Positions 4,266-43,886 are shown, numbered from the stretch's first letter. The stretch: DNA of 64,000 nt from Candidatus Uhrbacteria bacterium (GCA_016187515.1 JACPJN010000006.1:856-64855); one strand, 5' to 3'. Notes: generated by a model from the letters alone, not told the origin. Program-made: numbers and translations.

Positions 4266-5585
4266 ATGTCAAAATCCATAATCCGAACCTACATTTTACT
4301 GTTCATCGCCGCTATCGCGATGGCGGTGTTTGTGTCGGCCATCGGCGTAAAACTCATCCGCTCCGGGGGCGCGTCGGCTTTATTTGCGCCGGGGATCCGG
4401 CGTGAAAACCAATCTCCTTACCGCCGGGAAGCGGTGGAGATCACCCCGAAGGCCGCCTACACCCGGCTGATGGAGCAAGCCGGAATTGACCGGACTGACG
4501 CGGACGCCATTTTTTCCGCCGCGCAAAACGTGTATGACCTGACGAAAATTCGCGAAGGGCGCACGCTTGATCTTTATTTCAGCAAGGACACGGGCGAACT
4601 TGAAAAACTGGCGTATCAAATTGACAGCGAGGATGAGCTAGTGGTAACGCGTGTGAGCAATGCTGAAGATCTCCCACCCCTCCTAACCTCCCCTCGGGCA
4701 GGGGAGGAAATTTCCCCTCCTTTCCAAGGAGGGGTTAGGGGTGGTTCTCGTCTCCTCGGTTGGCACGCAACCCGCACCCCCATCAATTACGAAATTCGCG
4801 TTAAAAAAGTGGCCGGCGCTCTGGAAACCTCCCTTTACGAATGGGCGCTTACGCATAGCGTGGACGAACGCGCCATTATTGAATTTGCCAACGCGCTAGA
4901 GTGGAGCATTGATTTTGCCCATGACCCGCAAGCGGGAGACCGGTTTGCGTTTATCTATGAGGAGCGCTATCGGGATGGCGCATACATAATGCCCGGCACG
5001 GTTTTTGCGGGAAAATATGTAAATGTGGATAAAGAGCATCTCGCCTTCTACTTTGAAGAATCCGCCGATAACCAAGGATATTTTGACGCGGATGGAAATT
5101 CCCTTCAAAAACTGTTTTTGAAAGCGCCGGTGGCTTACCGCTACATTTCTTCCGGTTTTACCACCGGGCTGCGCTATGTGCGCGCGTTCAATGTCGCAAC
5201 CGGCCATCGCGCGATTGATTACGCGGCCGCGCACGGCACGCCGGTACGTACGACGGCCAACGGCACGGTAACGTACGCCGGCCGGAGCGGATCGTACGGA
5301 AACTTTATTACAGTGCGGCATAACGGGACCTACTCCACCAACTACGCTCATCTTTCGCGCCTGGCGGTGCGTTCCGGACAAAAAATCGCGCAGGGAGAAA
5401 CGATCGGGTATGTCGGTTCAACCGGATTTTCAACCGGCCCGCATTTGCACTATGAAATGGAAAAGCATGGCGTAAAAATTAATCCGCTCAAAGAAGTACT
5501 GCCGCCGGGAAAACCTATCGCGCCGGAGAATAAAGATAAATTTTTTAAGGAAATAAAACCTTACTTTAAAGAACTAAGGGAATGA
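4266..5585 (+). CDS. M23 family metallopeptidase (murein endopeptidase-like) with OapA-like N-terminal region
   Basis: C-terminal M23 motifs (HRAIDYAAAHGTPV, GNFITVRHNGTYSTNYAHL, GSTGFSTGPHLHYE). Start chosen at ATG 4266 (MSKSIIRTYILLF signal/TM), which avoids overlap with the upstream gene. Carries an in-frame hairpin repeat at 4672-4746. Confidence 0.85.
   Translation: MSKSIIRTYILLFIAAIAMAVFVSAIGVKLIRSGGASALFAPGIRRENQSPYRREAVEITPKAAYTRLMEQAGIDRTDADAIFSAAQNVYDLTKIREGRTLDLYFSKDTGELEKLAYQIDSEDELVVTRVSNAEDLPPLLTSPRAGEEISPPFQGGVRGGSRLLGWHATRTPINYEIRVKKVAGALETSLYEWALTHSVDERAIIEFANALEWSIDFAHDPQAGDRFAFIYEERYRDGAYIMPGTVFAGKYVNVDKEHLAFYFEESADNQGYFDADGNSLQKLFLKAPVAYRYISSGFTTGLRYVRAFNVATGHRAIDYAAAHGTPVRTTANGTVTYAGRSGSYGNFITVRHNGTYSTNYAHLSRLAVRSGQKIAQGETIGYVGSTGFSTGPHLHYEMEKHGVKINPLKEVLPPGKPIAPENKDKFFKEIKPYFKELRE
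4672..4746. repeat. Hairpin-element pair inserted in frame in M23 peptidase (PPLLTSPRAGEEISPPFQGGVRGG)
   Basis: CCCACCCCTCCTAACCTCCCCTCGGGCAGGGGAGG...CCTCCTTTCCAAGGAGGGGTTAGGGGTGG. The same sequence recurs at 43622-43705. Confidence 0.85.
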
Positions 5586-5726
5586 GACCGTTGAACAATC
5601 AATTGTTCGCGGTCATTCGTAAGGCCGCATGAGATAGACAGCGCAGGAAACCCAGGGTTTTGCGGCCGTCGGTTCGTGTCTATTTGTGTAAACTGCGAAG
5701 GAGTTAATTCCTCAACGCTCTAAGAA

Positions 5727-5767
5727 TAAAAAAAGCCCCCAAAGTCCTCTCCCGGCGACTTTGGGGC
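5727..5767 (-). terminator. Rho-independent terminator (GC hairpin GCCCCCAAAGTC/GACTTTGGGGC, T-run on the minus strand)
   Basis: An 11-bp GC-rich stem with a 10-nt loop is flanked by A8 on the plus strand (T8 on minus). It lies between convergent genes 4266..5585(+) and 5788..6822(-). Confidence 0.65.
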
Positions 5768-5787
5768 TTGCACCTTGTACATTATTT

Positions 5788-6881: not shown

Positions 6882-7781
6882 GTGGTACAATACCGCACTA
6901 TGTTTATCGCCATAGATATCGGCGGCACCAATACGCGGATCGGCGCTTCCAAAGACGGCCGACGACTTTACGCGATTGAAAAATTCAAAACTCCGAAAAA
7001 GTTTGCGGATGGAATCAAAGCAATTTCAAGGACTGTCCTTCACGCCACAAAAGGACAGTCCTTGAAATCTATCGTGATCGCAGTTCCAGGTCCTATTGAT
7101 CATCCACGCGGCAAGGTGCTCCACCTCCCTAATCTACCGGGCTGGCGCAACAAACCAATTACCAAAGTACTGACGCGCCATCTTAATTGCAAGGTGCTAC
7201 TTATAAACGATGCGGATGCCGCCGGATTAGGCGAAGCGCGCCGTGGAGCCGGACGCGGCTACACCCGAGTGGCTTATTTCACGATAAGCACCGGTATTGG
7301 CGGCGCGCTAATCATAAACGATTTTCTCCCCCTTTTGAAGGGGGAGATTAAGAGGGGGTCAAAATGCCCTCATCCACTCACCATCTCCGCAGAGCCAGGC
7401 CACCAAATCCTTATACCCGGCGGCCGGCGCGACAACTGCGGTCAACGCGGCTGCTTTGAGGCCTACGCTTCGGGAACCGGATTTTATAAAACCTACGGTG
7501 TGCGTCCCGAAAATTGTAAAAACAAAAAAATCTGGGCTAAACATGCCCAGACGGTTGGCTGGGGACTGATAAATACTATTGTGCACTGGTCTCCGGATAT
7601 TGTAGTTATCGGCGGCGGCCTTGCGCAGGCCGGCACATTACTTTTCACGCCCCTCCGCGCCTATGTGCGCAAAAATCTCAAAATCTTCAAACCACCACTA
7701 ATTGTTCCGTCAAAACTCGGAGATGACGCCGGACTTTACGGATGTTTGGAGTTGCTCAAGGGGAGTAAAAATTTTTCATAA
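6882..7781 (+). CDS. ROK family sugar kinase (glucokinase-like)
   Basis: N-terminal IAIDIGGTNTRIG ATPase motif and ROK Cys/His region (CGQRGCFEAYASG). Contains an in-frame hairpin repeat at 7326-7358 encoding LPLLKGEIKRG. Confidence 0.75.
   Translation: MVQYRTMFIAIDIGGTNTRIGASKDGRRLYAIEKFKTPKKFADGIKAISRTVLHATKGQSLKSIVIAVPGPIDHPRGKVLHLPNLPGWRNKPITKVLTRHLNCKVLLINDADAAGLGEARRGAGRGYTRVAYFTISTGIGGALIINDFLPLLKGEIKRGSKCPHPLTISAEPGHQILIPGGRRDNCGQRGCFEAYASGTGFYKTYGVRPENCKNKKIWAKHAQTVGWGLINTIVHWSPDIVVIGGGLAQAGTLLFTPLRAYVRKNLKIFKPPLIVPSKLGDDAGLYGCLELLKGSKNFS
7326..7358. repeat. Variant hairpin element CTCCCCCTT(T/G)(T/A)(G/C)AAGGGGGAGATTAAG(A/T)GGGGG in ROK kinase (second copy at 26518-26550 in ribE)
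   Basis: Two 33-bp copies with 4 mismatches sit in unrelated genes, both in frame. Confidence 0.8.
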
Positions 7782-8889: not shown

Positions 8890-10407
8890 TCAAATTTTCC
8901 GTACCATCCCCTTTACTGCATCAATCTCAACCCGATCACCGGTTTTTAACACCTTCGTTGCAATTCTGGTCCCGATGATGCAGGGAATCCCCAGTTCTCG
9001 CGAGACAATCGCGGCATGCGAGGTGAGTCCGCCTTCATCTGTGATTACCGCGCTGGCCTTATGCATGAGCGGCACAAATTCCGGCCGCGTCATGGTCGTG
9101 ACCAGAATTGCGCCGGCCTTAAAACGCGCGTTCGATACGTCGAGCACAACCTGCACGCGCCCTTGGAATGATTTGACCGGCAATGATGATGCAACCTGCC
9201 CTTGTATGGCAGCGGTCTTCTGCGCAGGAAACATTGTTTTCCACAGTTGTCGCGCGTCACGCCCCGTCAGCATGGCCTCCCGTTCCCCTTTGCCGCGCTT
9301 CCATGCTACATAGCATGAAAGCGTCCGCCGCTTACGCAATTGCGGCCGTCTTGGAATCACCCCGCGCATGAGTGCCGTTTGCACCTCCTCAATGGTCATA
9401 TATTTTACCTCCCGCACATTCATGCGCAACCGTCGTGAAATTTCGCGCGCATACTCTTCAAAGTATCGATCCGCAATAAGCGCGATGCGCTTGCGTTCAT
9501 CAACCCATCCTGACCAAAACGAAAGTAGCTCAAACGCGCGCTTTAGTTTTAAAGAGCATGGTAATGCAAGGCGCAATCGAGCTTGTTCCTTTTTCGTGCG
9601 CGCTATTTTTGCGCGGATGTCGCGCAACCCTCTGACCAGCTTCGCGCGAGTATTATTCTTAACCTCTAACCGCATCTCTTCCCAAAAATCTTGCGCGCCA
9701 AGCGCGCGGCTTTCCCGATAATTAGAACGCAGCCAGCTGTGGCCGCGCGCGAACGCCTCGAGTTGATTGCGAAAACGCTCTGGTAAACGCGGGTAGTTGT
9801 TGTACTTACGCAGCGCCGCATACCACTTCAGCATTATAGTGAGCACCCCTCCGCGCGCCTGTTGTATAAAACTTAGTTTAAGCGGCGAGGAAAGCGTAAA
9901 CGCAATATTATTTAAGCGTTCGTCAGTCAAGCCGGGAAATTCTTGCCTCATGAGCTTAGGAAGTTCGTAGGTCGTAAAAATGTCCGCGCTCTCTTGGACC
10001 CAGGTCATGCGCCAATGATCGCGCACTGCTTCATTAAAACGCAAAAAAGATAAGGCCAGCTCGCGATTACTCATTGTATTTTTTCTTCGAACCAGTCGCT
10101 TCCCCTCATTATGCAGCGTGCGAATAATTTCTCCCCATTTCTTATATTGGACGCGCTGACGTGATGGATTTTTGAGGTGTCGCATCCATACATAATTCCA
10201 AATTTTGAGTTTCTCGTCTTCGGGCGTTTCCTCAAAAACAAAATCATTTTTGAAAAAACACAAAATAATTGTCGGCAGCCGCGGATGCCAAAATTTTGAC
10301 TGCTCAATAAAGGCCCGCATCCATACGCAAAACATGGGCACGGCCGGCGCCTCTTCCGACCACCAAGTATGCTTTTTGATTTCTTCTATGACGAATGGCA
10401 ATTTCAT
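8890..10407 (-). CDS. RPH-like protein lacking ATP-grasp: variable N-terminus + central (substrate-binding-like) domain + C-terminal PEP-utilizer swivel phosphohistidine domain (paralogue 1)
   Basis: C-terminal GDILVTTMTRPEFVPLM...GGLTSHAAIVSRELGIPCIIGT matches the PEP-utilizers mobile domain with its catalytic His. The central W.DERK...Y region parallels the rifampin-binding domain of Listeria RPH. No GGKGxxL ATP-grasp motif is present. Confidence 0.7.
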   Translation of the reverse strand: MKLPFVIEEIKKHTWWSEEAPAVPMFCVWMRAFIEQSKFWHPRLPTIILCFFKNDFVFEETPEDEKLKIWNYVWMRHLKNPSRQRVQYKKWGEIIRTLHNEGKRLVRRKNTMSNRELALSFLRFNEAVRDHWRMTWVQESADIFTTYELPKLMRQEFPGLTDERLNNIAFTLSSPLKLSFIQQARGGVLTIMLKWYAALRKYNNYPRLPERFRNQLEAFARGHSWLRSNYRESRALGAQDFWEEMRLEVKNNTRAKLVRGLRDIRAKIARTKKEQARLRLALPCSLKLKRAFELLSFWSGWVDERKRIALIADRYFEEYAREISRRLRMNVREVKYMTIEEVQTALMRGVIPRRPQLRKRRTLSCYVAWKRGKGEREAMLTGRDARQLWKTMFPAQKTAAIQGQVASSLPVKSFQGRVQVVLDVSNARFKAGAILVTTMTRPEFVPLMHKASAVITDEGGLTSHAAIVSRELGIPCIIGTRIATKVLKTGDRVEIDAVKGMVRKI

Positions 10408-10452: not shown

Positions 10453-11859
10453 TTAGAGTTTCCTGACCATCCCGCGCTGCGCGTCAACTTCCACGTGATC
10501 GCCGGTTTTGAAAAGATGAGTCGCATGCACCGTGCCCGTGATACACGGAATTCCGAACTCGCGCGACATAATTGCCGCATGCACGGTTACTCCTCCTTCA
10601 TTAGTCACCACCCCGCCGGCCTTTTTCATGGCTAGCACAAAATCAGGGGTCGTCATGGAGGTAATTAGAATATCACCTTTCCGAATAAGACGCATGGCCT
10701 CTTTCGGATCATCCGTAACCACCGCGCGCCCTTTTGCATATCCGCGCGAGGCAATGACCCCCTTCACTTCCTGACGCGCCGTGTTCGGCATAGCCAGCTC
10801 TTGGTCAATCGCTTTCCACGCGGCCTGGCCATATTTTTCAAAAACTATTTTGCCCTGCTCAAACTTTGCGCAATATCCTCGCCGCCGCTTGGCAACAATC
10901 GCGCGCGGAAATTTTCCGGTTCTGATAAACTGTCTGGTCTCCTCTACTGTTAGCATTTGCACATCACGCATTGGCACCCTGTATCGCTTCGCCGCCGCCG
11001 TGCGCACCTCATCTATGGCATAAAGAGTCCGCATTTGAATTTCTTTGCGCTCATCATGCAATCGCGCGCAAGCATCCAGCACGCGCAAATACGGTTGTAT
11101 AATTTGCGCCGGAATTTTCCATTTGCGGATCATGGCTTGCCGCGCGTTGGCGATCTTTACGGCATACTGCAGCAACTCCACGCGTTTTTCTTTAACCTTC
11201 CGCATCTCTTTCAGTATATCGGCATGAGACAATGGTTTGGTTCCACTCCAACCCATGGTCAACCAAAAGTATTGCTTCCAAATCTCTCGGAGATCCAATC
11301 TCCGTAAGTTAGGAGATTGGATCTCTGCTTTGTATTGCATCACCACGCTGCGATACGCCGCTTGCTGCAAAATAGCCCAGTCCTCTTTATCTTCAACTAC
11401 CTGGCCATAACCGGCGCCACGCAACTGCTTTGCACATACTTCCGAAAAATAATCATCAAATGCGTCAATGGCAATGCCGAGCGTTCGCGTATGCAATAAA
11501 AGCAGTTCGTGTATCTTATCAAAACGCGCTAAAAGACCTTTGGCATCTTTTGGCAACGGCACATCCAGCAAGGCCAGCAGATATTTTCGGCACACTGCAT
11601 AACGCTCCCGCGCCGCTTTAAAAAAACTTCCTTCAGTGCCTTGAGTAATCCAGCGCTTGTTCCATTTCAAACCATTATCTCGGTATTCCGGCTGACCATA
11701 GCACCAATACAAATGCTCGTCTTTGAAACCAAAAAACGCGCGATCCACATTGTAGTATTCGCGCCCCTGGGCACCGCGCCGCTTAAACCAATCCGTGTGC
11801 GGCTCCAGCGCACTGAATATCGCGCCCCCGCGCTCATAGACTTTCCAATCAGTCCACAT
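10453..11859 (-). CDS. RPH-like central + swivel phosphohistidine domain protein (paralogue 2)
   Basis: C-terminus GDILITSMTTPDFVLAM...GGVTVHAAIMSREFGIPCITGT. Divergent N-terminal 150 aa. No ATP-grasp. Confidence 0.7.
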   Translation of the reverse strand: MWTDWKVYERGGAIFSALEPHTDWFKRRGAQGREYYNVDRAFFGFKDEHLYWCYGQPEYRDNGLKWNKRWITQGTEGSFFKAARERYAVCRKYLLALLDVPLPKDAKGLLARFDKIHELLLLHTRTLGIAIDAFDDYFSEVCAKQLRGAGYGQVVEDKEDWAILQQAAYRSVVMQYKAEIQSPNLRRLDLREIWKQYFWLTMGWSGTKPLSHADILKEMRKVKEKRVELLQYAVKIANARQAMIRKWKIPAQIIQPYLRVLDACARLHDERKEIQMRTLYAIDEVRTAAAKRYRVPMRDVQMLTVEETRQFIRTGKFPRAIVAKRRRGYCAKFEQGKIVFEKYGQAAWKAIDQELAMPNTARQEVKGVIASRGYAKGRAVVTDDPKEAMRLIRKGDILITSMTTPDFVLAMKKAGGVVTNEGGVTVHAAIMSREFGIPCITGTVHATHLFKTGDHVEVDAQRGMVRKL

Positions 11860-12764: not shown

Positions 12765-14501
12765 CTATATTTTTCTCACTGTCCCATTTTCTGCATCCAC
12801 CTCAACTATATCCCCATCCTTAAATACCTGCGTTGCCACTTTGGTACCCACAATGCAGGGCACGCCAAGCTCTCGTGAAACCACTGCCGCGTGGCTAGTC
12901 ATGCCGCCGGTGTCCGTTACAATCGCGGCGGCGCGTTTCATCACCATAATGTAATCCGGCGAAGTCATGCCCGTAACCAAAATATCGCCGTGCTTCATCC
13001 GTTGCAATTCTTTGTGCGGCGAAAAAATCAAACGCACTCTCCCGCGCACTTTTGGCCCACGGCTTACCGTGAGCCCATGCACTTCCTCCACTCCTTGATG
13101 CGCGCGTTTTTCAAAAGGCGCCAAAACTTTAAGCGCGGCTTTGCCGGTATATACTCGCGAATCGCCTTTTTCCCATTCTAAATGCATCACACTCACTTGC
13201 CGCGCTTTGGCCAGATCGCGCACATTGACCCTGGCACCCGATAATACTGCCTCAATTTCATCTGGCATCAAATCTTTGCACATCGTAAACGGCACTCGCG
13301 CGCGCCGCGCCACCTCATTCAAAAATATATCAATCGCATGATTGGCTTGCCACACATATTTTTTGCGTTCGTCTTGCCAACTAATGGTTTGTCCAAGTTT
13401 GCGCGCCACAGTTGCTTCCAATTTTGAAAAACCTAGTTTTTTGATCATCTGCTCTTTTGCGCGCGCCCGCTGTCGTGGGGCTTGCTCAATGGCGCGCATA
13501 CGCTCACTAATACTTCCTTTTTTTATTTCCTCTTTGAGCCGCTTTGCAAAATCCGCCGCGGTGAGTACGCGACTGCCATAATAACTGTTATACAGCCAAA
13601 AATATTTTCGCGCGTGCGCTGCCAGAGCTTTCCTTAGTTCTTTGTCATCAATAAATTCATAACTCCCCCTCCCCCCTCTTATCTTAAGAGGGGGTTTCGA
13701 TCGGTCTCCTCCCCTTAAGGTAAGGGGAGGCTGGGAGGGGCTATGCGCAATTGCAATCCTCAACAAATCCCGTTCCTCTTCTTGAAAAAATCCCAACTCT
13801 GCCGGCGCGCTTAAAACTTCAAGCGCATGCAGATATTCTTGACCAGCCAGTCCGCGCTTTTTAAGCGCGTCCATCAAAAACTTCTCCCCGCCCCAATTAG
13901 CCAGCTCCGGCACAGTGCCATGATTCCAAAAATCAAAATACGCTTCTTTCCACTGATGATAAAGCTTCGCGTAACTCCCCCTTATCCCAAGATGGGGTTT
14001 CGCTTGATCCCCCTCCCAAAAGGCGCGGGAGGGCTGGGGAGGGTTATGAAAAATCTGGTTCACGACTTGCTGATTTAGCGCGAGTAACTTTTCTACCGCC
14101 CGATCAAACCGCCGGCGCACCAACGCCTTCTTCTTATCCGGCAATATCCACTTTTCAAAAACGCGCCACCCGTCCTTGCGTAGCGCCTCCTGGTCACAAA
14201 TATAAGTCATCTTATGACGATTGAACGCAAAAAGCGCCTCGGGCCAATGCACGCCATAGGTTTTTGGAAACCGGTCAAAATAGGTCATGACCCAGTACGC
14301 AGGATACTGCCACGCCCCCTCAATCGGCCCCCAGACAAACAGTTCACGCTTGGGATTGATCATAATCACGATTACCCCTAATTCTATAATAAAAACTGCG
14401 GCTTGACAAGGAGAGGTAAATATGCTATGATGCGAGGATTCTGGATGATGAAGATGAATAGGACAACCTGCCCTTGCGCAAAGCTGCGCAAAGCAAGACA
14501 A
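12765..14501 (-). CDS. RPH-like central + swivel phosphohistidine domain protein (paralogue 3), carries two in-frame hairpin-repeat insertions
   Basis: C-terminus GDILVTGMTSPDYIMVM...GGMTSHAAVVSRELGVPCIVGT with central KYFWLYNSYYG and W.DERKKY motifs. In-frame inserts at 13663-13745 and 13973-14050 encode SQPPLTLRGGDRSKPPLKIRGGRGSYEF. Confidence 0.7.
   Translation of the reverse strand: MSCFAQLCARAGCPIHLHHPESSHHSIFTSPCQAAVFIIELGVIVIMINPKRELFVWGPIEGAWQYPAYWVMTYFDRFPKTYGVHWPEALFAFNRHKMTYICDQEALRKDGWRVFEKWILPDKKKALVRRRFDRAVEKLLALNQQVVNQIFHNPPQPSRAFWEGDQAKPHLGIRGSYAKLYHQWKEAYFDFWNHGTVPELANWGGEKFLMDALKKRGLAGQEYLHALEVLSAPAELGFFQEEERDLLRIAIAHSPSQPPLTLRGGDRSKPPLKIRGGRGSYEFIDDKELRKALAAHARKYFWLYNSYYGSRVLTAADFAKRLKEEIKKGSISERMRAIEQAPRQRARAKEQMIKKLGFSKLEATVARKLGQTISWQDERKKYVWQANHAIDIFLNEVARRARVPFTMCKDLMPDEIEAVLSGARVNVRDLAKARQVSVMHLEWEKGDSRVYTGKAALKVLAPFEKRAHQGVEEVHGLTVSRGPKVRGRVRLIFSPHKELQRMKHGDILVTGMTSPDYIMVMKRAAAIVTDTGGMTSHAAVVSRELGVPCIVGTKVATQVFKDGDIVEVDAENGTVRKI
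13663..13745. repeat. Inverted pair of hairpin units inserted in frame in paralogue 3
   Basis: TCCCCCTCCCCCCTCTTATCTTAAGAGGGGG...CCTCCCCTTAAGGTAAGGGGAGGCTGGGAGGGGCTATG. Confidence 0.85.
13973..14050. repeat. Degenerate inverted pair of hairpin units in paralogue 3
   Basis: AACTCCCCCTTATCCCAAGATGGGG...CCCCTCCCAAAAGGCGCGGGAGGGCTGGGGAGGGTTATGA. Confidence 0.75.
14403..14431 (+). promoter_or_regulatory. Near-consensus sigma-70 promoter (TTGACA-17nt-TATGAT) upstream of the creatininase-family gene
   Basis: TTGACA at 14403-14408, a 17-nt spacer, then TATGAT at 14426-14431. The leader to ATG 14556 is ~120 nt. Confidence 0.55.
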
Positions 14502-31110: not shown

Positions 31111-31130
31111 ATTTGGAATTTTTACGCCAT

Positions 31131-32007: not shown

Positions 32008-33231
32008 TCACCAAAACATCACTCGTCTGTTTATCTGCCAATACGCATTCATGGCTGGATTCGCAATATACTTAAGCACGGGGTTCATTACTTCTTGAAA
32101 TAAAATTTGTCCGGTAAAATCGCGCATCATACTCCTATCGGACATGGTGCGCATGGCTTGAATCGCGCGCCTCTCACGCGCTATTTTTCGCCACGAACTG
32201 GGTTTGAAAAAATAACCCCAGCTGCGTAATTTTGGCTTGGCGTATCCGCCAAGTATCGCGCCGGAGAGCACCCCAAGCTCCATTGCGAAAAACGCCGGCG
32301 CGATTAAAATCAGCGTCGGCACTTTATAAAACTGCAGCATCGTGAGCAACCGATTGCGCTCCATATAATAGACCTGTAAAATGGAACGCTTGAATTCATA
32401 CTTGTGCCACATGATTGATTTTGGAGCGAACACCACGCGATAGCCGGCCAACTTGGCTTTCAGGCAAAGCTCCATATCGTCGTGATACATAAAAAAGTCC
32501 GGATTGCAAAGTCCAATTTTTTCAAATACTGCGCGCCTCACATACATGGACGCGCCAGAAGCGTAAGGAATGTCCTCAATTTCTCCTCCCCTTAAGGTAA
32601 GGGGAGGCTGGGAGGGGTTATGAGTGCTTTCTATATCGCCATATCCCTTGCAATACCCAAACCCAAGAAAATGAATTTGATTGCCAACTGAATTGATCCG
32701 CTGCACGCCATCTTTTCCCACGGGCCAAAGCAACAGTTTTGACTGCACAATGCCGATCGGGCGATTGTCGTAACTCCCCCTACCCCCTCTTACCCTAAGA
32801 GGGGGTTCCGATCGATCTCCCTCCCTTAAGATAAGGGAGGGTTGGGGAGGGTTATGCTCCTCACTATACGCTGCCGCCACGAGTTCGCGTAACCACTGCG
32901 GCTGCACAATCACATCCATGTTGGAAAGCACAATATCCTCACAGCCGTCTTTAAACGCCTGCGCAATCCCCACATTATTCCCCCCGCCCCAACCGGAATT
33001 TTCTTTATTGGGCAATATCACCGCCTCCGGATACATTTCGCGCAAATATGCTTCCGTCTCCGGACTTGTCGCGTTGTCCACGATGTACACCACATATTTA
33101 TCACGCGGATAATTAATCTTCCGCATGCTATCCCGACAATCCTCAAGAAACCTTTTGGCGTAGGTTTTGTAGTTGATTAAAACTATGCCTACCTTCGGTG
33201 TCATAGTTTGATTATTAATCAGATTTAACAC
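32008..33231 (-). CDS. Family 2 glycosyltransferase with two in-frame hairpin-repeat insertions
   Basis: GT-A motifs (VVYIVDNATSPET..., DxD-type region, NSGWGGGNNVGIA). Inserts at 32584-32622 and 32773-32857 encode HNPSQPPLTLRGGEIED and HNPPQPSLILREGDRSEPPLRVRGGRGSY. Confidence 0.8.
   Translation of the reverse strand: MLNLINNQTMTPKVGIVLINYKTYAKRFLEDCRDSMRKINYPRDKYVVYIVDNATSPETEAYLREMYPEAVILPNKENSGWGGGNNVGIAQAFKDGCEDIVLSNMDVIVQPQWLRELVAAAYSEEHNPPQPSLILREGDRSEPPLRVRGGRGSYDNRPIGIVQSKLLLWPVGKDGVQRINSVGNQIHFLGFGYCKGYGDIESTHNPSQPPLTLRGGEIEDIPYASGASMYVRRAVFEKIGLCNPDFFMYHDDMELCLKAKLAGYRVVFAPKSIMWHKYEFKRSILQVYYMERNRLLTMLQFYKVPTLILIAPAFFAMELGVLSGAILGGYAKPKLRSWGYFFKPSSWRKIARERRAIQAMRTMSDRSMMRDFTGQILFQEVMNPVLKYIANPAMNAYWQINRRVMFW
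32584..32622. repeat. Solo hairpin unit in GT2 (encodes PSQPPLTLRGG)
   Basis: CTCCTCCCCTTAAGGTAAGGGGAGGCTGGGAGGGGTTATGAG. Confidence 0.85.
32773..32857. repeat. Inverted pair of hairpin units in GT2
   Basis: ACTCCCCCTACCCCCTCTTACCCTAAGAGGGGG...CTCCCTCCCTTAAGATAAGGGAGGGTTGGGGAGGGTTATG. Confidence 0.85.
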
Positions 33232-34506: not shown

Positions 34507-34575
34507 ATTGAAGTAAATCAAGCGAGACAGGTAAATCAGGCGCTTGACTTGCTTGATTCACTTGATTTACTTGCT
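34507..34575. repeat. Family B iteron array (TAAATCAAG / CTTGATTTA copies) between two GT2 genes
   Basis: AAGTAAATCAAGCGAGACAGGTAAATCAGGCGCTTGACTTGCTTGATTCACTTGATTTACTTGCTTTAC. Confidence 0.75.
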
Positions 34576-35754
34576 TTACTTTTCTAAAAACCACCGCCTC
34601 ATCTCTTCCGGCTTTACTTTATAATTCGCCATAATCGCGCACCGCTTGGCCATGGTGCGCGGCCACAGTTTTTTCACTTCACGCAAGCCTTTCAGTGTTC
34701 CCCAATCGGTGAAAATCAGATATACAAACTTCTTCAGCTCATACCCGAGAATCCACGGCCAGTCTTTTCCAAAGTTAGCACGATGCTCATTCTTTAGCAA
34801 GACCGTGAGATGATTCCGATAGGAATAGTAATTTACATACGCCGCCCGCCCTTTTCGATTTTTCATGGCTGCCGAGTCAGACATTTCTTGCGGTCCTGTC
34901 GCAGTGCGATCATGCCACGCGCGCGCCTCTGCCGTCACATACGCTTTCCATCCCGCGCTCCGCAGGCGGAATGCTAAATCAACATCCTCTTTATAACTTC
35001 CAAATTCATCATCAAACATACTTCCTTCAAATGCCACATCATCAACTGCCTTGCGGCGATAAATGGGGAGTGCACCAGAGACACCGAAAACTTCAACGCC
35101 TCCCCCTCTTAAGGTAAGAGGGGGTTGGGGGGCGTTATGAGTTGTCATTTGTTCTCCTGTTCTCCAATCCACCACTCTCCGATTTCGCAACACCTTCAAT
35201 CCCATTGTATCAATGATATTGGTGAGCGATTCGCTAATTGGAAATTGGAAATTATCCTCCCGATGCGGATCCGCCCTGGGCGGAGAAATTAGAAATTTAC
35301 TAAAATCCCATTTTAGCAGTGTCCCCTGTCCTGCCCCGGCCTCCGGATTGCCGTCCATCATCGCGACTACTTTTTCCAAATAATCCGGGGCCAAATACAT
35401 GTCTTGATTGAGGAGTTGGATGTACTCGGATGGCGTAGGGCGTAGGGCGTAGGGCGTAGAGTTCGAATCAATTTCATTACCATTTGCCCTATGCCCTATG
35501 CTCTTAGCCACCAAACGCACGGCTTGATTATGCCCCCCTGCAAATCCGAGATTTTTTTCATTGCGCACTAGTCGCGCAGGCACTGGCAGATTCTTTATTT
35601 CACGCTCAATTAAATCCGCTGTCCCATCCGTGGAATTATTATCAATCGCCAGTAACTCCCAATCTCTATACGTCTGCCTTCGGAGCGACTCAAAAAGATA
35701 GGGAATATACTTTGCGCCGTTCCAAGCCACTAAATGCACCGAGAGTTTTGCCAT
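34576..35754 (-). CDS. Family 2 glycosyltransferase carrying a heptanucleotide tandem repeat and a hairpin-repeat insertion in frame
   Basis: LSVHLVAWNGAKYIPYLFESLRRQTYRDWELLAIDNNSTDGT GT2 motifs. In-frame inserts (GCGTAGG)x4 at 35433-35460 and the hairpin unit at 35099-35141. Confidence 0.75.
   Translation of the reverse strand: MAKLSVHLVAWNGAKYIPYLFESLRRQTYRDWELLAIDNNSTDGTADLIEREIKNLPVPARLVRNEKNLGFAGGHNQAVRLVAKSIGHRANGNEIDSNSTPYALRPTPSEYIQLLNQDMYLAPDYLEKVVAMMDGNPEAGAGQGTLLKWDFSKFLISPPRADPHREDNFQFPISESLTNIIDTMGLKVLRNRRVVDWRTGEQMTTHNAPQPPLTLRGGGVEVFGVSGALPIYRRKAVDDVAFEGSMFDDEFGSYKEDVDLAFRLRSAGWKAYVTAEARAWHDRTATGPQEMSDSAAMKNRKGRAAYVNYYSYRNHLTVLLKNEHRANFGKDWPWILGYELKKFVYLIFTDWGTLKGLREVKKLWPRTMAKRCAIMANYKVKPEEMRRWFLEK
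35099..35141. repeat. Solo hairpin unit in GT2 34576..35754
   Basis: GCCTCCCCCTCTTAAGGTAAGAGGGGGTTGGGGGGCGTTATGAG. Confidence 0.85.
35433..35460. repeat. Heptanucleotide tandem repeat (GCGTAGG)x4 inside GT2 CDS, paired with inverted (GCCCTAT)x2 at 35487-35503
   Basis: Direct reading of GGCGTAGGGCGTAGGGCGTAGGGCGTAGA. The unit length is not a multiple of three. Confidence 0.8.
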
Positions 35755-35756: not shown

Positions 35757-36803
35757 CTATGTTACTCTCTTTCCCTGCATATTCAATTTATCCCCCACCC
35801 ACACAGCCGCAAGCGCCAACGGACGCACCCAATCAAGTAATTCCCCCTCCCACCATGGACGATGTTTTCTAAAATATTGCACCATTGAGCGCGTCATCAT
35901 TTTTTGCTTCGGATACAAGCGCACTTGCTTAAAACTCTGTCCCACATAATCCACGGCCTTGACTGTCGGCGTGTAAGCCACTTCATAACCGGCCTCAATT
36001 GCGCGTTTGCAAAAATCCACTTCTTCAAACCAAATAAAAAATCCTTCATCCAGCATGCCGATTTTATCCAAAAGTTCCCGCCGAATCATAAAGAAAGACC
36101 CGCGAATGGAATCCACCCGCGCTTCTTTACTATAATCAAAATCTTGCATCATATAATGGTCAAGTACTTTTGGAAAAAAATGTGGTACTTTGAGCATAAT
36201 AGCAAGCTGATCTTTGATTGTGGGGAACCTGCGCACGTGGGGGACAGTGACGTAGTCATCTATTTCGTAACTCCCCCTACCCCCTCTTACCCTAAGCGGG
36301 GGTACCGCTCGATCTCCCTCCCTTAAGGTAAGGGAGGGAGGGGGTGGGTTATGAATCGGCGACACCAACCAACACCCTGCTACTCCGACCTTCGCATTTA
36401 CAGGATCATCCATAAACCGTACCATCCCCTCCAATGTCCCCTGAAATACCCGCATATCCGGATTCAGAAGAAGCACATAGCGACCTTGCGAAAGCCGAAT
36501 CGCTTGATTGTTGGCTTTTGCAAAACCAGCATTAAAATCATTGGCAATCACATGTACGGACGGAAATTCCTGCTCCACCATTTGTACTGTCCCATCTTTT
36601 GAAGCATTATCAACCACAAAAACTTCGTAGGTTAAAGAGCCCCCTCCCCTAGCCCCTCCCACCGAGGGAGGGGAATTTCCAATGATTTCCTCCCCCTTGA
36701 TGGGGGAGGATGAAGGAGGGGGTGTGGTTTCCTCCACCGACCTCAAACACTCCCTTAACTTTTCCTTGACGTTCCAACTGACGATAACAATTGATAAATC
36801 CAT
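35757..36803 (-). CDS. Family 2 glycosyltransferase with three in-frame repeat insertions
   Basis: MDLSIVIVSWNVKEKL...FVVDNASKDGT GT2 motifs. Inserts at 36269-36354 and 36639-36730. Confidence 0.8.
   Translation of the reverse strand: MDLSIVIVSWNVKEKLRECLRSVEETTPPPSSSPIKGEEIIGNSPPSVGGARGGGSLTYEVFVVDNASKDGTVQMVEQEFPSVHVIANDFNAGFAKANNQAIRLSQGRYVLLLNPDMRVFQGTLEGMVRFMDDPVNAKVGVAGCWLVSPIHNPPPPSLTLREGDRAVPPLRVRGGRGSYEIDDYVTVPHVRRFPTIKDQLAIMLKVPHFFPKVLDHYMMQDFDYSKEARVDSIRGSFFMIRRELLDKIGMLDEGFFIWFEEVDFCKRAIEAGYEVAYTPTVKAVDYVGQSFKQVRLYPKQKMMTRSMVQYFRKHRPWWEGELLDWVRPLALAAVWVGDKLNMQGKRVT
36269..36354. repeat. Inverted pair of hairpin units in GT2 35757..36803
   Basis: Nearly identical to the pair at 32773-32857 (ACTCCCCCTACCCCCTCTTACCCTAAGCGGGGG...CTCCCTCCCTTAAGGTAAGGGAGGGAGGGGGTGGGTTATGA). 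Confidence 0.85.
36639..36730. repeat. Variant hairpin element (TCCTCCCCCTTGATGGGGGAGGA type) in GT2; second copy at 43037-43133 in GT4
   Basis: GCCCCCTCCCCTAGCCCCTCCCACCGAGGGAGGGGAATTTCC...TCCTCCCCCTTGATGGGGGAGGATGAAGGAGGGGGTG. Both copies encode ...SSPIKGEE.... Confidence 0.85.
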
Positions 36804-37677: not shown

Positions 37678-38607
37678 CTACGCCATGTTTTTTGTCAAGA
37701 ATTCTTTTAGCGCCTCTTGCCACGGTCGCAGAGGCGGCAGTTTGGTATTGAAGAGTACGACACGCGCTGGTCGGCGGGCTTTGCGGGGAAAGTGGTCTGG
37801 ACCGACTGGCACGACTTCCACATTGGAAAGGCCGGCGTATTCCAGCGCGGCTTTGGCATACTCATACCAAGTGCAGGAACCGGAATTGGTGAGGTGATAG
37901 ATGCCTGAGGGGTGTGGTTGTCGTAACCCCTCCTTCGCCCCGCCATCTGGCGGTGGCTCACCTCCCCTTACCCTAAGGGGAGAAAGACCGAGGAGAGTAA
38001 GTGTGGCTTGCGCTAAATCCTTCACATACGTCGGGCTTCCGGCTTCGGCATCAACCGCTTCCACTTTCCCCTTTTCACGCGCGATTTTAATCATCATTTC
38101 CGGAAAACTTTTTTTGCTCGTCTCCCCAGTACCGGGGGGGCCGAAAAGTTTGGAGGTACGGATGAGGTACCAGGGGGTAAGTGAGTAAGTTAGTAAGTGA
38201 GTAAGTAATTTTTGCTCTCCCAACGCCTTAGATTGGCCGTATACGGAAATGGGGCCAGGAAGATCTTCCTCATGGTACCCGTCAGTACGCGTACCACTAA
38301 ACACGTAATCCGTGGAAAAATGCACAAACGTCGCGCCGCACTCTGCTGCCGCGCGCGCTAAGTATCCTACGGCTTCGCCGTTGATCGCCATCGCCACCTG
38401 CGGTTCGTCTTCCGCTTTGTCCACGTTATTGTACGCCGCACAATTCAAAATTACGCTCGGCTGGAGCGCGTTTATTTTATTCATAACTGCTTGTTCGCTG
38501 GTAATATCAATATCTTCGCGCGTCCAACCCACCACGTCTTGGCCGCGCAGTTGCCTCATGAATTCTTGGCCCAGCATTCCATGACCTCCTATAATGAGGA
38601 TCTTCAT
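37678..38607 (-). CDS. rmlD: dTDP-4-dehydrorhamnose reductase
   Basis: MKILIIGGHGMLGQE Rossmann N-terminus and RmlD-type catalytic YxxxK region. Start at ATG 38607. In-frame hairpin insert at 37908-37984. Confidence 0.75.
   Translation of the reverse strand: MKILIIGGHGMLGQEFMRQLRGQDVVGWTREDIDITSEQAVMNKINALQPSVILNCAAYNNVDKAEDEPQVAMAINGEAVGYLARAAAECGATFVHFSTDYVFSGTRTDGYHEEDLPGPISVYGQSKALGEQKLLTHLLTYSLTPWYLIRTSKLFGPPGTGETSKKSFPEMMIKIAREKGKVEAVDAEAGSPTYVKDLAQATLTLLGLSPLRVRGGEPPPDGGAKEGLRQPHPSGIYHLTNSGSCTWYEYAKAALEYAGLSNVEVVPVGPDHFPRKARRPARVVLFNTKLPPLRPWQEALKEFLTKNMA
37908..37984. repeat. Hairpin unit pair in rmlD
   Basis: GGGGTGTGGTTGTCGTAACCCCTCCTTCGCCCCGCCATCTGGCGGTGGCTCACCTCCCCTTACCCTAAGGGGAG. 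Confidence 0.8.
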
Positions 38608-38694
38608 AACGTAAACTTGATGGCCACTGATGGTGACGGATGGCCACGGGATCACGGATCTGTGATCTGTGGCTATCCTGTCTTCTATCCGTGG

Positions 38695-40127: not shown

Positions 40128-40230
40128 GGCAAGTAAATCAAGCGAGACAAGCCCTGTAGTGAAGCTTCGCTCTACTACGGGGCAAGCAAGTCAAGCTGCT
40201 TGATTTACTTGATTTACTTGATTTACCTGA
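40125..40230. repeat. Family B iteron array between HIT and PMT-like genes
   Basis: AAGTAAATCAAGCGAGACA (identical 19-mer to 34509-34527), then an imperfect hairpin, then (CTTGATTTA)x3 CCTGATTCAC. Confidence 0.75.
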
Positions 40231-40231
40231 T

Positions 40232-41899: not shown

Positions 41900-42485
41900 T
41901 TAAGCTAATAACACCAACGCCAATCGCGCTGATAAAAATCCAAAAGGACGCGTCTCGAAAGATACGCGCGCCGTCAATAATATGGATGAGCAAGAGCGCG
42001 ACTCCAATAACTTGCAGATTCATCTTAATCTTGCCCCATAAATTCGCGGCGCGCACGATCCCTTTATTCTTAAAATATAATCCGGCCAATATTCCAAAAA
42101 ATTCCAGTCCCAGCACAAAACCCGCCAAAACCATACCAAACTCCTGAAACACCAGCATCAATACCGCTCCGCCAATCAAAAATTTATCCGCCACTCCGTC
42201 ATAGATAATTCCCCACAGCGTAATCTGCCGCCGGGTGCGGGCCATCGCGCCGTCAATCGCGTCGGTCAGCGCTACTAAAAGGAAGGCCGCAAGTCCCGCG
42301 GCATAATATTCCTTAAGCAGCAGCCAAAACACTAGCGGGGCAGTTACAAACCGCACCATGGTAACGTGATTGGGTTTGACCGAATACGGAATAATCCGCA
42401 AAATCGTCAGAGCAAAGAGCTTATCGTAAAAAGTGAGTTTAATATTGGAATTAAGCGCTTCGGTCGAAGTTTCACTGCTGGGCAT
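41868..42485 (-). CDS. CDP-alcohol phosphatidyltransferase family protein
   Basis: DAIDGAMARTRRQITLWGIIYDGVADK matches the D-G-x2-A-R...G-x3-D-x3-D signature. Multi-TM. Confidence 0.8.
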   Translation of the reverse strand: MPSSETSTEALNSNIKLTFYDKLFALTILRIIPYSVKPNHVTMVRFVTAPLVFWLLLKEYYAAGLAAFLLVALTDAIDGAMARTRRQITLWGIIYDGVADKFLIGGAVLMLVFQEFGMVLAGFVLGLEFFGILAGLYFKNKGIVRAANLWGKIKMNLQVIGVALLLIHIIDGARIFRDASFWIFISAIGVGVISLIVHARTLEHS

Positions 42486-42497
42486 ATTCCTTATATT

Positions 42498-43886
42498 CTA
42501 ACGCGTTTGTATAGAATTGTAAACCCCGAGGAGTCGATCATAGTAGGCCTCCGGAGCAGACATCTTCGCGCTTTTGGCCGCGCCCTCCGCAAGCGCCTCC
42601 TGCTCTTTACCCATCATCCGCGTTAGTGCGGAAGTCAACGCTTGCGGATCACCCGGAACAACCAGAATTCCATTGACCCCATCCTCCACAATTTCCGGAA
42701 TTGCGCCGATCCGCGAGGCAATTACCGGAACTCCGGAGGAGAAACTCTCCACGATCGCAAGTCCAAACGTCTCGTAGGCGAGTGACGGTACGACCATGGC
42801 CCGTGCGCCTTTCATTAATTCGAAAAGTTCATGATGGGCGACAAATCCTCGGCAGATTATTCCGCGAATCATCTTGGCGGCCCGTTGCGCTTCTTGCTTC
42901 ATACTGCCCCGACCAATAATCTCCAGGCCTGCTCGGGGATTACCCGCGACAAATTGCCGCCAAGCGGAAATAAGCACGCGCAGACCTTTATAGGGTTCGA
43001 GTTGGCCAATAAAAAGGAATCGAACTCCCTCAACATTTCCCCCTCCCCTAACCCCTCCCGCCAAGGGAGGGGGATTTCGTTTGTCTTCCTCCCCCTTGAT
43101 GGGGGAGGATTGAGGAGGGGGTGAGGGGTTATGAACCACGGGATTCGGAATCACCGCTTTTTTCGCCTTTGGAAAAAATCCCGCGCGATTATATTCCTCC
43201 AGCACAAATTGCGAAGGCGCGACCACCGCGTCCGGGCCGCTTAAAAGTTTCCGACATATCGCGCGGTACAAACGCACAACCGGTATCGGATTGCGAATCG
43301 CGTTTTCTTTGCCCCACTCCATATATCCGCGCGGATGCAAAGCGCCAAGATCGTGTAAACCATGGAACCACTTGGGCGTGTAACGTGTAACGTGTAACGT
43401 GTAACGTCGGATTGCTAGCGGAACGGTGTAACCCAGGCCCTTGAGATTGCGGGTAACAATAAGGTCGGGCTGCTCCTCATACAAAATGCGACGTACGACC
43501 AAAAATGTATGCGGATTAAACATATCCACGAGATGCCAGATCAGGCGCAGCAGCGGCGGATATTTTGCAATACTAAAATAAGTAAAAAGATTCAGCGGAG
43601 TGAAACGAAAAATACGGATCGCGCTCCCACCCCTCCTAACCTCCCCTCGGGCAGGGGAGGAAATTGGATCGTTTCTCCCCCTCTCCGAGGGGGAGTTAGA
43701 GGGGGTCCGCATGGATTGCGCTTGCCACGCGCCGGCCAAACTTTTTCCCCCTTCAAACGGCGCGCCGGTAATCACGAACACGGCGTGGCCCGCCTCCGCA
43801 AACGCGCGTGCCGTGGCCTCCGCCACCATCTCTGCCCCGCCGCGCGCATAAGGCGGAAAAATACTGCTAATAATACAAACCTTCAT
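42498..43886 (-). CDS. Family 4 glycosyltransferase with two large in-frame repeat insertions
   Basis: GT-B/GT4 EX7E-region motif ETFGLAIVESFSSGVPVIAS. Inserts at 43037-43133 and 43622-43705. Confidence 0.8.
   Translation of the reverse strand: MKVCIISSIFPPYARGGAEMVAEATARAFAEAGHAVFVITGAPFEGGKSLAGAWQAQSMRTPSNSPSERGRNDPISSPARGEVRRGGSAIRIFRFTPLNLFTYFSIAKYPPLLRLIWHLVDMFNPHTFLVVRRILYEEQPDLIVTRNLKGLGYTVPLAIRRYTLHVTRYTPKWFHGLHDLGALHPRGYMEWGKENAIRNPIPVVRLYRAICRKLLSGPDAVVAPSQFVLEEYNRAGFFPKAKKAVIPNPVVHNPSPPPQSSPIKGEEDKRNPPPLAGGVRGGGNVEGVRFLFIGQLEPYKGLRVLISAWRQFVAGNPRAGLEIIGRGSMKQEAQRAAKMIRGIICRGFVAHHELFELMKGARAMVVPSLAYETFGLAIVESFSSGVPVIASRIGAIPEIVEDGVNGILVVPGDPQALTSALTRMMGKEQEALAEGAAKSAKMSAPEAYYDRLLGVYNSIQTR
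43037..43133. repeat. Variant hairpin element in GT4 (copy of 36639-36730 type)
   Basis: CCCCTCCCCTAACCCCTCCCGCCAAGGGAGGGGGATTTCG...TCCTCCCCCTTGATGGGGGAGGATTGAGGAGGGGGTGAGGGGTTATGA. Confidence 0.85.
43622..43705. repeat. Hairpin-element pair in GT4 (copy of the 4672-4746 M23 insertion, opposite coding orientation)
   Basis: GCTCCCACCCCTCCTAACCTCCCCTCGGGCAGGGGAGGAAATTGG...CTCCCCCTCTCCGAGGGGGAGTTAGAGGGGG. Confidence 0.85.

Follow-up and report, generated by a model that had tools for sequence, protein, structure and literature searches.

The 64,000-nucleotide stretch of DNA from Candidatus Uhrbacteria bacterium analyzed here (GCA_016187515.1, JACPJN010000006.1:856-64855; hereafter, the window), a member of the Candidate Phyla Radiation (CPR; Patescibacteria), carries numerous copies of a short palindromic repeat, most of which lie in frame within protein-coding genes. 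A census with nhmmer, combined with a structure-based scan of the window, yields approximately 34 units of 35-42 nucleotides (nt) each, spanning positions 545-63433, with inverted pairs of 84-108 nt. Among these units, 27 are in frame within 12 open reading frames (ORFs) bearing clear, intact Pfam domains, seven are intergenic, and none of the 27 intragenic units introduces a stop or a frameshift. The excess over chance is large: the 13-mer TCATAACCCCTCC occurs 19 times with up to 2 mismatches, compared with 1.1 expected, and the hairpin TCCCCTTA-NNN-TAAGGGGAGG is found at 9 loci, that is, as 18 strand matches, compared with 0.08 expected. The translated inserts include recurrent peptides, such as HNPPQPSLTLREGD, PPLRVRGGRGSY, SSPIKGEE and others, and the two opposite reading orientations of one unit give unrelated peptides.

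An earlier note on this DNA had described palindromes inserted in frame into at least 12 genes in the manner of Rickettsia palindromic elements (RPEs), without stops and with recurrent peptides, at positions 4672-43705. The insertions, their missing stops and the peptides are all borne out, and the segments are missing from orthologues, as described below; the repeats are real, but they extend well beyond that range and seven of them are intergenic. The host genes are the following:

4191-5585: M23 peptidase (Pfam)
6882-7781: ROK kinase (Pfam)
12765-14501: paralogue with a phosphoenolpyruvate (PEP)-utilizer domain (Pfam)
21852-22994: PPDK_N/ATP-grasp protein (Pfam)
26362-27006: RibE (Pfam)
32008-33231, 34576-35754 and 35757-36803: three family 2 glycosyltransferases, GT2a, GT2b and GT2c (Pfam)
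37678-38655: RmlD (Pfam)
42498-43886: family 4 glycosyltransferase, GT4 (Pfam)
62129-62827: hypothetical gene
62914-63900: FG-GAP protein (Pfam)

The concentration in the glycosylation locus that the earlier note had stressed is weak, with about 0.9 units per kb there and 0.4-0.55 in the rest of the window.

On its G-rich strand, a unit reads [yT]CCTCCCCTTA-NNN-TAAGGGGAGG-NNN-GGAGGGGTTA[TGA]. The order of the segments is a C-rich pyrimidine arm, a 3-nt loop, a complementary purine arm, a 3-nt spacer and a third strand composed of G, A and T, which is the mirror image of the purine arm and, in a solo unit, is complementary to nothing. The repeat of about 40 bp that had been noted previously is a genuine one, except that the segment taken for its flank is this third, mirror-repeat strand. 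Every pyrimidine/purine hairpin in the window and in the 115 loci listed from the library search described below was scored for the mirror rule, under which G stands opposite G and either A or T stands opposite A. The scores are bimodal, with 254 of the 646 strand views at 9/9 and 68 at 8/9, and a background mode at 3-5. Without any filtering, canonical arms are associated with their own third strand in 152 cases and with another type in 0, and variant arms with another type in 0 cases and with their own in 53. At least 10 subfamilies comply with the rule; they differ in the position of A, and all three strands shift jointly, as in the covarying arm/third-strand types AAGGGGAGG/GGAGGGGTT, AAGAGGGGG/GGGGGAGTT, AAGGGGGAG/GAGGGGGTT, AAGGGAGGG/GGGAGGGTT, GGGAGAGGG/GGGTGAGGG and others. 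Counted over distinct types, an internal A is faced in the third strand by A (68 types), T (29), C (3) or G (3); A or T at this position is the triad rule of the purine motif and is not expected from simple mirror duplication and later drift. In the 35 variant units (30 loci) that fall outside the search pattern, conservation reaches at least 90% at every position of the three strands but only 40-60% in the loop and the spacer, and the flanking sequence is random.

In nearest-neighbour folding as single-stranded DNA (ssDNA), a solo unit forms a 10-bp hairpin with the third strand unpaired, and in pairs the two third strands are able to pair together; hairpin energies range from -9.5 to -34 kcal/mol, with z-scores of -2.4 to -5. 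A single strand could fold into a purine-motif triple helix made of G.GC, A.AT and T.AT triads.

The inverted pairs number 77, 23 with the third strands inside and 54 with the third strands outside. All 77 combine two different subfamilies, usually AAGGGGAGG and AAGAGGGGG; no homogeneous pair is found, compared with about 24 expected by our estimate from subfamily frequencies. Perfect long palindromes may be lost, or the hetero-pair itself may be a propagation unit. The possibility that the flank serves as the Watson-Crick partner of the other pair member was rejected as the main constraint: flank-to-flank Watson-Crick identity averages 6.7/9 and identity of the flank to its own mirror 8.8/9, so that the mirror relation is the primary constraint, and about half of the units are solo.

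The individual copies are listed here with the positions of paired units and with insert peptides or element sequences (BoxC and TM_ECO are Escherichia coli motifs compared with these units below):

545-611, plus strand: unit at the 3' end of ORF 96-560, hairpin CCCTCCCTTA-AGT-TAAGGGAGGG, with a 34-nt GC-rich hairpin nested in the spacer and parting the hairpin from the third strand GGGAGAGTTA
623-664, minus strand: solo canonical unit, intergenic, closed in 6 of 6 frames because its spacer is TAA
4676-4745: inverted pair, third strands outside, in frame in the M23 peptidase gene (4676-4707 minus, 4714-4745 plus), peptide PPLLTSPRAGEEISPPFQGGVRGG
7325-7358, plus strand: single diverged unit, in frame in the gene for the ROK kinase, FLPLLKGEIKRG
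13656-13747: composite of about 90 nt, third strands outside, in frame in the PEP-utilizer gene 12765-14501 (13662-13694 minus, 13708-13741 plus), peptide HSPSQPPLTLRGGDRSKPPLKIRGGRGSYE
13978-14049: decayed second copy of the composite of about 90 nt, also in gene 12765-14501, HNPPQPSRAFWEGDQAKPHLGIRGSY
22052-22135: PPDK_N site 2, inverted pair, third strands inside, in frame (22054-22085 plus, 22100-22133 minus)
22564-22669: PPDK_N site 1, inverted pair, third strands inside, small central hairpin, in frame (22567-22600 plus, 22634-22667 minus)
26508-26550: RibE unit with a flank on either side, in frame, PPLNLPLVKGEKEGVG
27352-27434: inverted pair, intergenic, directly preceding the gene for riboflavin kinase
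32583-32624, plus strand: canonical unit standing alone, stem perfect, in frame in GT2a, HNPSQPPLTLRGGE
32768-32858: composite of about 90 nt, in frame in GT2a (32773-32805 minus, 32819-32852 plus), peptide HNPPQPSLILREGDRSEPPLRVRGGRGSYD
35100-35141, plus strand: single unit belonging to the CCCCCTC subfamily, in frame in GT2b, HNAPQPPLTLRGGG
36265-36355: composite of about 90 nt, in frame in GT2c (36270-36302 minus, 36316-36349 plus), peptide HNPPPPSLTLREGDRAVPPLRVRGGRGSYE
36642-36721: pair whose subfamily lacks the TTA stem base, in frame close to the N-terminus of GT2c (36642-36673 minus, 36688-36721 plus), peptide PPPSSSPIKGEEIIGNSPPSVGGARGG
37921-37984, minus strand: solo canonical unit, in frame in RmlD, whose spacer, separating the purine arm from the third strand, holds a nested 26-nt hairpin (37936-37961), peptide SPLRVRGGEPPPDGGAKEGLR
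43041-43120: pair, in frame in GT4 (43041-43072 minus, 43087-43120 plus), peptide PPPQSSPIKGEEDKRNPPPLAGGVRGG
43629-43706: second GT4 pair, in frame (43629-43660 minus, 43675-43706 plus), peptide PSNSPSERGRNDPISSPARGEVRRGG
52563-52613: BoxC-type unit, intergenic, CCCTCTCCC / GGGAGAGGG / GGGTGAGG
55849-55883, minus strand: unit that matches the TM_ECO consensus exactly, located in the 5' leader of gene 54544-55836 and ending 12 nt before the ATG
55963-56051: intergenic inverted pair, third strands inside, between a gene for a 1928-aa protein and gene 54544-55836 (55965-55998 plus, 56016-56049 minus)
62608-62641, plus strand: diverged unit, in frame in the hypothetical gene 62129-62827, TPYPSPFPQGERE
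63399-63433, plus strand: in-frame copy in the FG-GAP gene 62914-63900 that matches the TM_ECO consensus exactly, PHPGPLPQGERGR

The composite of about 90 nt occurs four times in the window, in unrelated genes, and its central spacer, GAyCGAkCG, is similar from copy to copy. Two units have a small GC-rich hairpin (568-601 and 37936-37961) nested in their 3-nt spacer; the 21-nt core of the RmlD nested piece was considered as a repeat family of its own and dismissed, being unique in the window and all listed loci. Two intergenic copies are placed close to start codons: the purine arm TAAGAGGGGG of the 27352-27385 unit lies 4 nt before the riboflavin kinase ATG at 27347, and GGGGGTGAGGG of the 55849-55883 unit precedes the ATG of gene 54544-55836 by 12 nt. 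The purine-rich strands of these two units probably serve as, or mask, the ribosome-binding site. The sequence GGAGGGGTTATGA, which the earlier note called a Shine-Dalgarno-plus-ATG cassette, nowhere serves as a start in the window; it is a purine arm or third strand that stands upstream of the two start codons instead. One pair has a terminator-like hairpin on one side and a promoter-like TATAAT on the other. The region after the pair at 27352-27434 also holds about 430 nt of extra DNA (27435-27866) between the NUDIX and riboflavin kinase genes, which abut in the related contig described below; ORF 27570-27941 in this region is on the plus strand.

A canonical unit ending in TCA has stops in 5 of its 6 frames, and one ending in TCG, with a spacer other than TAA or TGA, has a single open frame per orientation. 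The mean number of open frames out of 6 is 1.85 for intergenic units (12% of which have none open) and 2.76 for intragenic ones. The observation that the host frame always reads the unit end as CAT-AAC-CC is correct and uninformative, because stops close the other frames of the canonical unit, and selection against stops must yield this regularity; we accordingly rejected it as an independent signal. The intact frames and the missing stops argue for translation of the inserts, since skipping or splicing would lift both constraints, and the inserts are probably transcribed and translated as part of their host genes.

The earlier note had named in advance the comparison on which its reading would stand or fall, namely, whether orthologue alignments show these segments to be ancestral conserved protein sequence. 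They do not: in the PPDK_N and RmlD alignments, the segments are insertions, missing from orthologues with 66-73% identity over aligned columns. The PPDK_N homologues are mostly 311-317 aa long, compared with 380 aa here. At PPDK_N site 1, 6 of the 18 aligned sequences have no insert, some of them being 78-84% identical to the window protein over aligned columns (64-70% by BLAST), and at site 2, the element peptide is missing in the same six sequences and in others. The RmlD homologues are typically 277-286 aa long, compared with 309 aa here, and the segment is missing in 10 of the 16 aligned sequences; a contig of a CPR relative with an empty RmlD site contains no elements in 17 kb. Solved structures give the same picture, with about 22 extra residues in RmlD between residues 208 and 214 of 1vl0, two extra segments in PPDK_N relative to PEP synthase, about 14 extra aa in RibE relative to riboflavin synthases and about 12 in the ROK kinase relative to glucokinases. 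Paralogues within the window were tried as a guide to the insert boundaries and abandoned as too diverged (27-31% identity).

AlphaFold models of PPDK_N and RmlD, computed from the orthologue alignments, show the inserts as coil of low confidence, in predicted surface loops, consistent with the location in enzyme loops that had been proposed. PPDK_N residues 112-142 are modelled as coil between helix 92-108 and strand 147-152, residues 292-316 as coil between strands 280-284 and 320-324, and RmlD residues ~208-229 as coil between helix 195-205 and strand 235-238, all with pLDDT of about 50 or below; the bordering secondary-structure elements are confidently predicted.

Another Uhrbacteria contig, MGDU01000025 (hereafter L119), contains eight genes in the same order as the window at 21.8-31 kb, 7 of which are orthologous, with 61-84% amino acid identity; the eighth shows 25% identity and belongs to a different Pfam family. 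The RibE element is common to the window and L119, and in L119 the loop of its hairpin holds a nested element of the E. coli BoxC type, CCCTCTCCC TCA GGGAGAGGG CAG GGTGAGGG, read as TPTPLPQGEGRVR. The PPDK_N site 2 insert is also shared, with its second half decayed in L119; 13978-14049 in the window is likewise degenerated. At PPDK_N site 1, L119 carries a BoxC-type pair and the window a TTA-type pair. Across orthologues, at least 4 unrelated repeat types occupy one and the same loop, one of them a palindrome with a 13-bp stem read as RTSAAGATRGPTS. The inserts recur in independent assemblies: a 100% identical RmlD is present in Logan contigs, and the RibE and PPDK_N site 2 inserts are found in MGDU01. 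In other CPR lineages, the PPDK_N loop contains another family of in-frame palindromes, GAGGTCGGACCTC-N16-GAGGTCCGACCTC (13-bp stem), read as RGRTSAAGATRGPTS, which is carried by L121 6001-7029 and by sequences P0004, P0012, P0014, P0025 and P0052 of the PPDK_N alignment. Separately, the window encodes five paralogues ending in a PEP-utilizer mobile domain (8890-10407, 10453-11859, 12765-14501, 17036-18520 and 20752-21783) next to the separate PPDK_N gene 21852-22994, which together look like a split, amplified PEP-synthase-like system. The paralogue 17036-18520 has FRLRGND where 12765-14501 has the LTLRGGD insert, and this may be an old, decayed insertion.

The repeat is not confined to Uhrbacteria. 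A scan of a 596-Gb library with the pattern TAACCCCTCC-N3-CCTCCCCTTA-N3-TAAGGGGAGG, which specifies 30 bases and by our own calculation is expected about 1e-6 times by chance, finds it in at least 115 stretches, often several per metagenome-assembled genome (MAG). Among the matches listed are Desulfobacterota (Geobacter, Desulfuromonadaceae, Desulfobulbaceae), Nitrospirota and many CPR lineages, as well as a complete 2.75-Mb Deltaproteobacteria chromosome. The location relative to genes differs between hosts: at the listed loci of other genomes, 18-25% of the units lie within long ORFs, compared with 69-83% of random positions, whereas in the window the corresponding values are 81% and 77-84%, and in the Uhrbacteria relative, 7 of 9 units are within long ORFs. 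In-frame copies elsewhere are found in genes for TsaD, Fmt, MurB, a GT4 and an RsmA-like methyltransferase and in a His_biosynth gene from a Nitrospirae MAG. An exhaustive search with a 31-aa composite peptide gave 6 representative clusters at E <= 0.001, a result of low power as a census, though with informative matches, and a word-index search with a 45-aa concatenated insert peptide gave no matches. In the literature that we searched, there is no description of this repeat family or of in-frame palindromes in Patescibacteria. In one of the listed Desulfuromonadaceae MAG loci (L008 2618-3454), a 220-nt segment consisting of a gene 3' end and an element pair is repeated in tandem 3.8 times with 96% identity.

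The closest known counterparts of the units are BoxC, PIT and TM_ECO, which have been described in E. coli and other Proteobacteria as class II (purine motif) intrastrand triplex motifs (Holder et al. 2015, PMC4666352; Hoyne et al. 2000 cited therein). As presented there, these elements share with the window units a 9-10 nt pyrimidine stem, a loop of 3-6 nt, a purine stem, a 3-nt loop and a mirror G/A/T strand, and likewise occur solo and as palindromic pairs, in many copies per genome, with no mobilizing enzyme known and, in that account, no assigned function (PMC4666352). The TM_ECO consensus, CCCTCNCCC N3-6 GGGNGAGGG N3 GGGNGAGGG (PMC4666352), is matched exactly by 55849-55883, 63399-63433 and two listed loci, but not by the dominant TTA-type units: unlike TM_ECO, the dominant window family consists of CCTCCCCTTA / TAAGGGGAGG / GGAGGGGTTA and variants and, unlike the E. 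coli elements, occurs in Desulfobacterota, Nitrospirota and CPR. Extragenic location, a trait of BoxC/PIT/TM_ECO, does not hold in the window, where 27 of about 34 units are inside ORFs; in other genomes, 75-82% lie outside long ORFs. The window units are mostly intragenic and in frame, whereas the analysis in PMC4666352, as far as its account goes, places the E. coli elements only relative to neighbouring ORFs and intergenic regions; the hetero-pair rule and nesting seen here find no mention for TM_ECO in that account (PMC4666352).

The resemblance to RPEs is one of behaviour. In both cases, palindromic selfish repeats reside in frame in unrelated housekeeping genes of a reduced-genome bacterium, and the inserted peptides are tolerated; the stop-free in-frame insertion at protein-tolerated positions that characterizes RPEs is what we find here. 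As summarized in PMC10969869, RPEs are about 150 bp long and form Rickettsia-specific sequence families with a conserved encoded peptide (Ogata et al. 2000 via PMC10969869), and the predicted three-dimensional conformation of their host proteins stays compatible with function (PMC10969869). Unlike RPEs, the units measure 35-42 nt, can be read in both orientations, possess a mirror third strand, are common to several phyla and reside in a CPR host. The units are not members of the RPE families, from which, going by the RPE descriptions, they are set apart by size, sequence families, host and architecture.

In Geobacter, a genus from the phylum of many listed matches, 'multicopy palindromic nucleotide sequences' have been reported as mostly intergenic palindromic repeats, with no triplex reading in the account given (Aklujkar et al. 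2010, PMC2996986, Table S6). The G. bemidjiensis consensus, ...CCCCCTCCCCTTGACGGGAGGGGG-YYR-GGGGGTGGG... with an inverted partner, contains a hairpin, a 3-nt spacer, a mirror strand with T opposite A and inverted pairs (PMC2996986); the Geobacter family reported inside genes appears, from the same description, to be a different repeat (PMC2996986). REP/REPIN elements are likewise short palindromes of 20-40 nt, solo or in inverted doublets and in many copies, but extragenic and linked to a RAYT transposase gene (PMC3116915). A mirror third strand is not known to be part of the definition of REP elements. A miniature inverted-repeat transposable element would have terminal inverted repeats with a target-site duplication on either side; here the composite ends are CATAAC...GTTAYG, the flanks are random 1-4 nt past the unit, and there is no direct repeat. 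The small dispersed repeats of filamentous cyanobacteria are reportedly hairpin repeats of 21-27 nt that insert into each other, with no mobilizing mechanism known (Elhai et al. 2008); they resemble the window units in size and nesting and differ in sequences and hosts.

Overall, we consider it likely that the units are a structure-defined family of 35-42-nt selfish dispersed repeats with the BoxC/PIT/TM_ECO architecture that are filtered by selection within genes. They are best regarded as a BoxC/PIT-type family that is common to several phyla and, in Uhrbacteria, colonizes coding sequence in frame. Copies have been added over time to this genome and its relatives, including onto earlier copies, and most surviving copies in this compact Uhrbacteria genome, as sampled by the window, are intragenic. 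The persisting copies would be those that landed in, or mutated to, a single stop-free frame within a tolerant surface loop, where their translation would add Pro/Gly/Arg/Leu-rich loops of 11-36 residues, predicted to be disordered, and where neutral decay would follow insertion, as partly seen. The conservation pattern suggests that the copying process recognizes either the fold of the three strands or a protein by which all three segments are read on ssDNA, and the nesting and the repeated occupancy of one loop suggest that existing copies may act as landing pads for new ones. A candidate mobilizer, the PD-(D/E)XK gene (PF13366, 33237-33707) located between glycosyltransferase genes, was rejected, with a homologue in 1 of the 115 listed loci. 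A domain related to PF13366 is fused upstream of an element-bearing MurB (P0241).

The alternative that deserves most attention, although we regard it as unlikely, is that the units are host-selected modules that supply ribosome-binding sites, pause transcription or translation, terminate transcription, bind a conserved protein or, through local instability, diversify surface-glycan genes; the intragenic copies would then be more than tolerated. Such a function would explain why the stems and the third strand are at least 90% conserved across phyla while loops and spacers vary freely, why two intergenic copies present a purine-rich strand 4-12 nt before start codons and why one pair is bordered by a terminator-like hairpin and a promoter-like TATAAT; triplex motifs have been tied to genomic instability in E. 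coli, according to PMC4666352, and the in-gene fraction in the window equals that of random positions. A host function is difficult to reconcile with reading in both orientations to give unrelated peptides, with hosts that are functionally unrelated enzymes, with close orthologues that manage without the inserts and with the decay of copies, all of which point to a selfish rather than a host-selected element. Furthermore, PIT/TM_ECO had no promoter or terminator activity in the earlier tests recounted in PMC4666352, and copies in most genomes are intergenic, with no fixed position relative to genes. It is highly improbable that the inserts are missing from the mature proteins through ribosome bypass, as in mitochondrial 'byp' and T4 gene 60, or through removal from the mRNA: the units form strong hairpins and CPR bacteria have unusual insertions in rRNA and tRNA genes (PMC13011429), but all 27 intragenic units keep the frame and are free of stops, against a family mean of 1.85 open frames out of 6, and a search of the window against Rfam at gathering thresholds gives one tRNA only and no self-splicing RNA family.

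We give very little credence to a local origin, by slippage or template switching at each site in low-complexity, Pro/Gly-coding DNA. The presence of different repeat types in one loop in different lineages and the lack of a visible target-site duplication fit that idea; 30 bases identical at no fewer than 115 places in unrelated genomes do not, nor do the recurrence of the composite in unrelated genes with similar spacers and the existence of intergenic units. Next to no credence remains for RPE families proper or for an assembly or binning artefact: in-frame palindromes inside enzymes are an RPE hallmark in the description of PMC10969869, but 35-42-nt units, even as pairs of 84-108 nt, fall short of about 150 bp, the host is a CPR bacterium and the architecture is that of a triplex motif, and an artefact would not recur in independent assemblies.

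Several observations weigh against the interpretation of the units as mobile selfish elements built around a three-strand fold. No target-site duplication or target motif is detectable in 301 oriented units or at codon-resolved junctions, no match to an empty allele of the GT2a solo site was found in metagenome contigs to attest recent mobility, and there is no transposase-like or RAYT (Y1 HUH) gene among the 45 window ORFs scanned against Pfam. That the three strands are so strongly conserved across phyla could just as well reflect a function that benefits the host. The in-gene fraction comes from one 64-kb window that was picked for this feature, translation of the inserts is deduced from open frames, and the triple helix is deduced from sequence; for TM_ECO, the triplex was stable in isolated single strands and, in the experiments described in PMC4666352, was not detected in double-stranded DNA or in vivo. 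Among the 'Gammaproteobacteria' labels of source assemblies, at least one is probably wrong: CAYHPG01 (L019, L084, L121), labelled 'uncultured Gammaproteobacteria bacterium', contains a PPDK_N/PEP-utilizer locus and a GT2 gene that are closely Uhrbacteria-like and looks like CPR.

The window contains other repeats. A second family consists of tandem nonamers CAAGTAAAT followed by the inverse CTTGATTTA, forming AT-rich inverted intergenic arrays at these positions:

29623-29668
34510-34582
40130-40229, starting directly after a stop codon
46380-46443
62845-62917

With up to 2 mismatches, CTTGATTTACTTG matches 23 times in the window, compared with 1.4 expected, and the nonamer arrays could be terminators or multi-frame stop signals. 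Intergenic inverted arrays of heptamers of the ACAAATY type (e.g., ACAAATTACAAATCACAAATCACAAAC / TTTGTGATTTGTAATTTGG) are present at 45263-45359 and 31003-31121. A cyanobacterial source, which the heptamer and nonamer arrays had suggested, was rejected, since the PPDK_N protein is 100% identical to a Candidatus Uhrbacteria protein (locus tag HYW17_01295) encoded on a 355,817-nt contig. Perfect or near-perfect tandem repeats of 7-9 nt are found at 35432-35459 (GT2b), 43377-43407 (GT4), 38177-38206 (RmlD), 48458-48489 and 63569-63597, with the units GGCGTAG x4, CGTGTAA x4.4, GTAAGTGA x3.8, AGTCCAATG x3.6 and TGTGATT x4; at least 3 lie within coding sequences, and in RmlD about 5 residues that homologues in the Protein Data Bank lack coincide with the repeat. 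These repeats could be sites of slipped-strand mispairing or phase variation or a further kind of in-frame repeat. A CPR relative carries a UDP-glucose dehydrogenase gene with an intein (L116 1181-3916; Pfam Intein_splicing, with a faint LAGLIDADG match).

The selfish, selection-filtered family that we favour bears on how repeats are viewed in reduced genomes. In-frame selfish palindromes have been treated as a Rickettsia speciality; they are now found in CPR, in the form of a smaller, different element and of several repeat families, and such RPE-like behaviour in equally genome-reduced bacteria suggests that compaction may push selfish repeats into genes generally. The BoxC/PIT/TM motifs, for 30 years without a known function or origin, gain a set of covarying subfamilies that crosses phyla, which makes both the relevance of the triplex in vivo and the question of the mobilizer testable. 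On the practical side, the recurrent low-complexity insert peptides confuse CPR annotation, domain boundaries and homology searches, and identical 40-mers across phyla can mislead binning and assembly.

A bolder reading, which we entertain only tentatively and with more doubt than conviction, takes the three-way covariation, which holds in at least ten subfamilies and several phyla, as comparative evidence for an intrastrand DNA triplex, or for a reader of three segments on ssDNA, that is recognized in pan-bacterial mini mobile elements. If this is true, the elements would be defined by fold, not sequence, would move as obligate hetero-pairs and would insert preferentially into the loops and spacers of earlier copies, and it is through such landing pads that one protein loop would come to hold different elements in different lineages. 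The elements would also cross phylum boundaries within groundwater communities, perhaps by passing from CPR episymbionts to their hosts or back, and would constitute a major ongoing source of new protein loops in CPR genomes.

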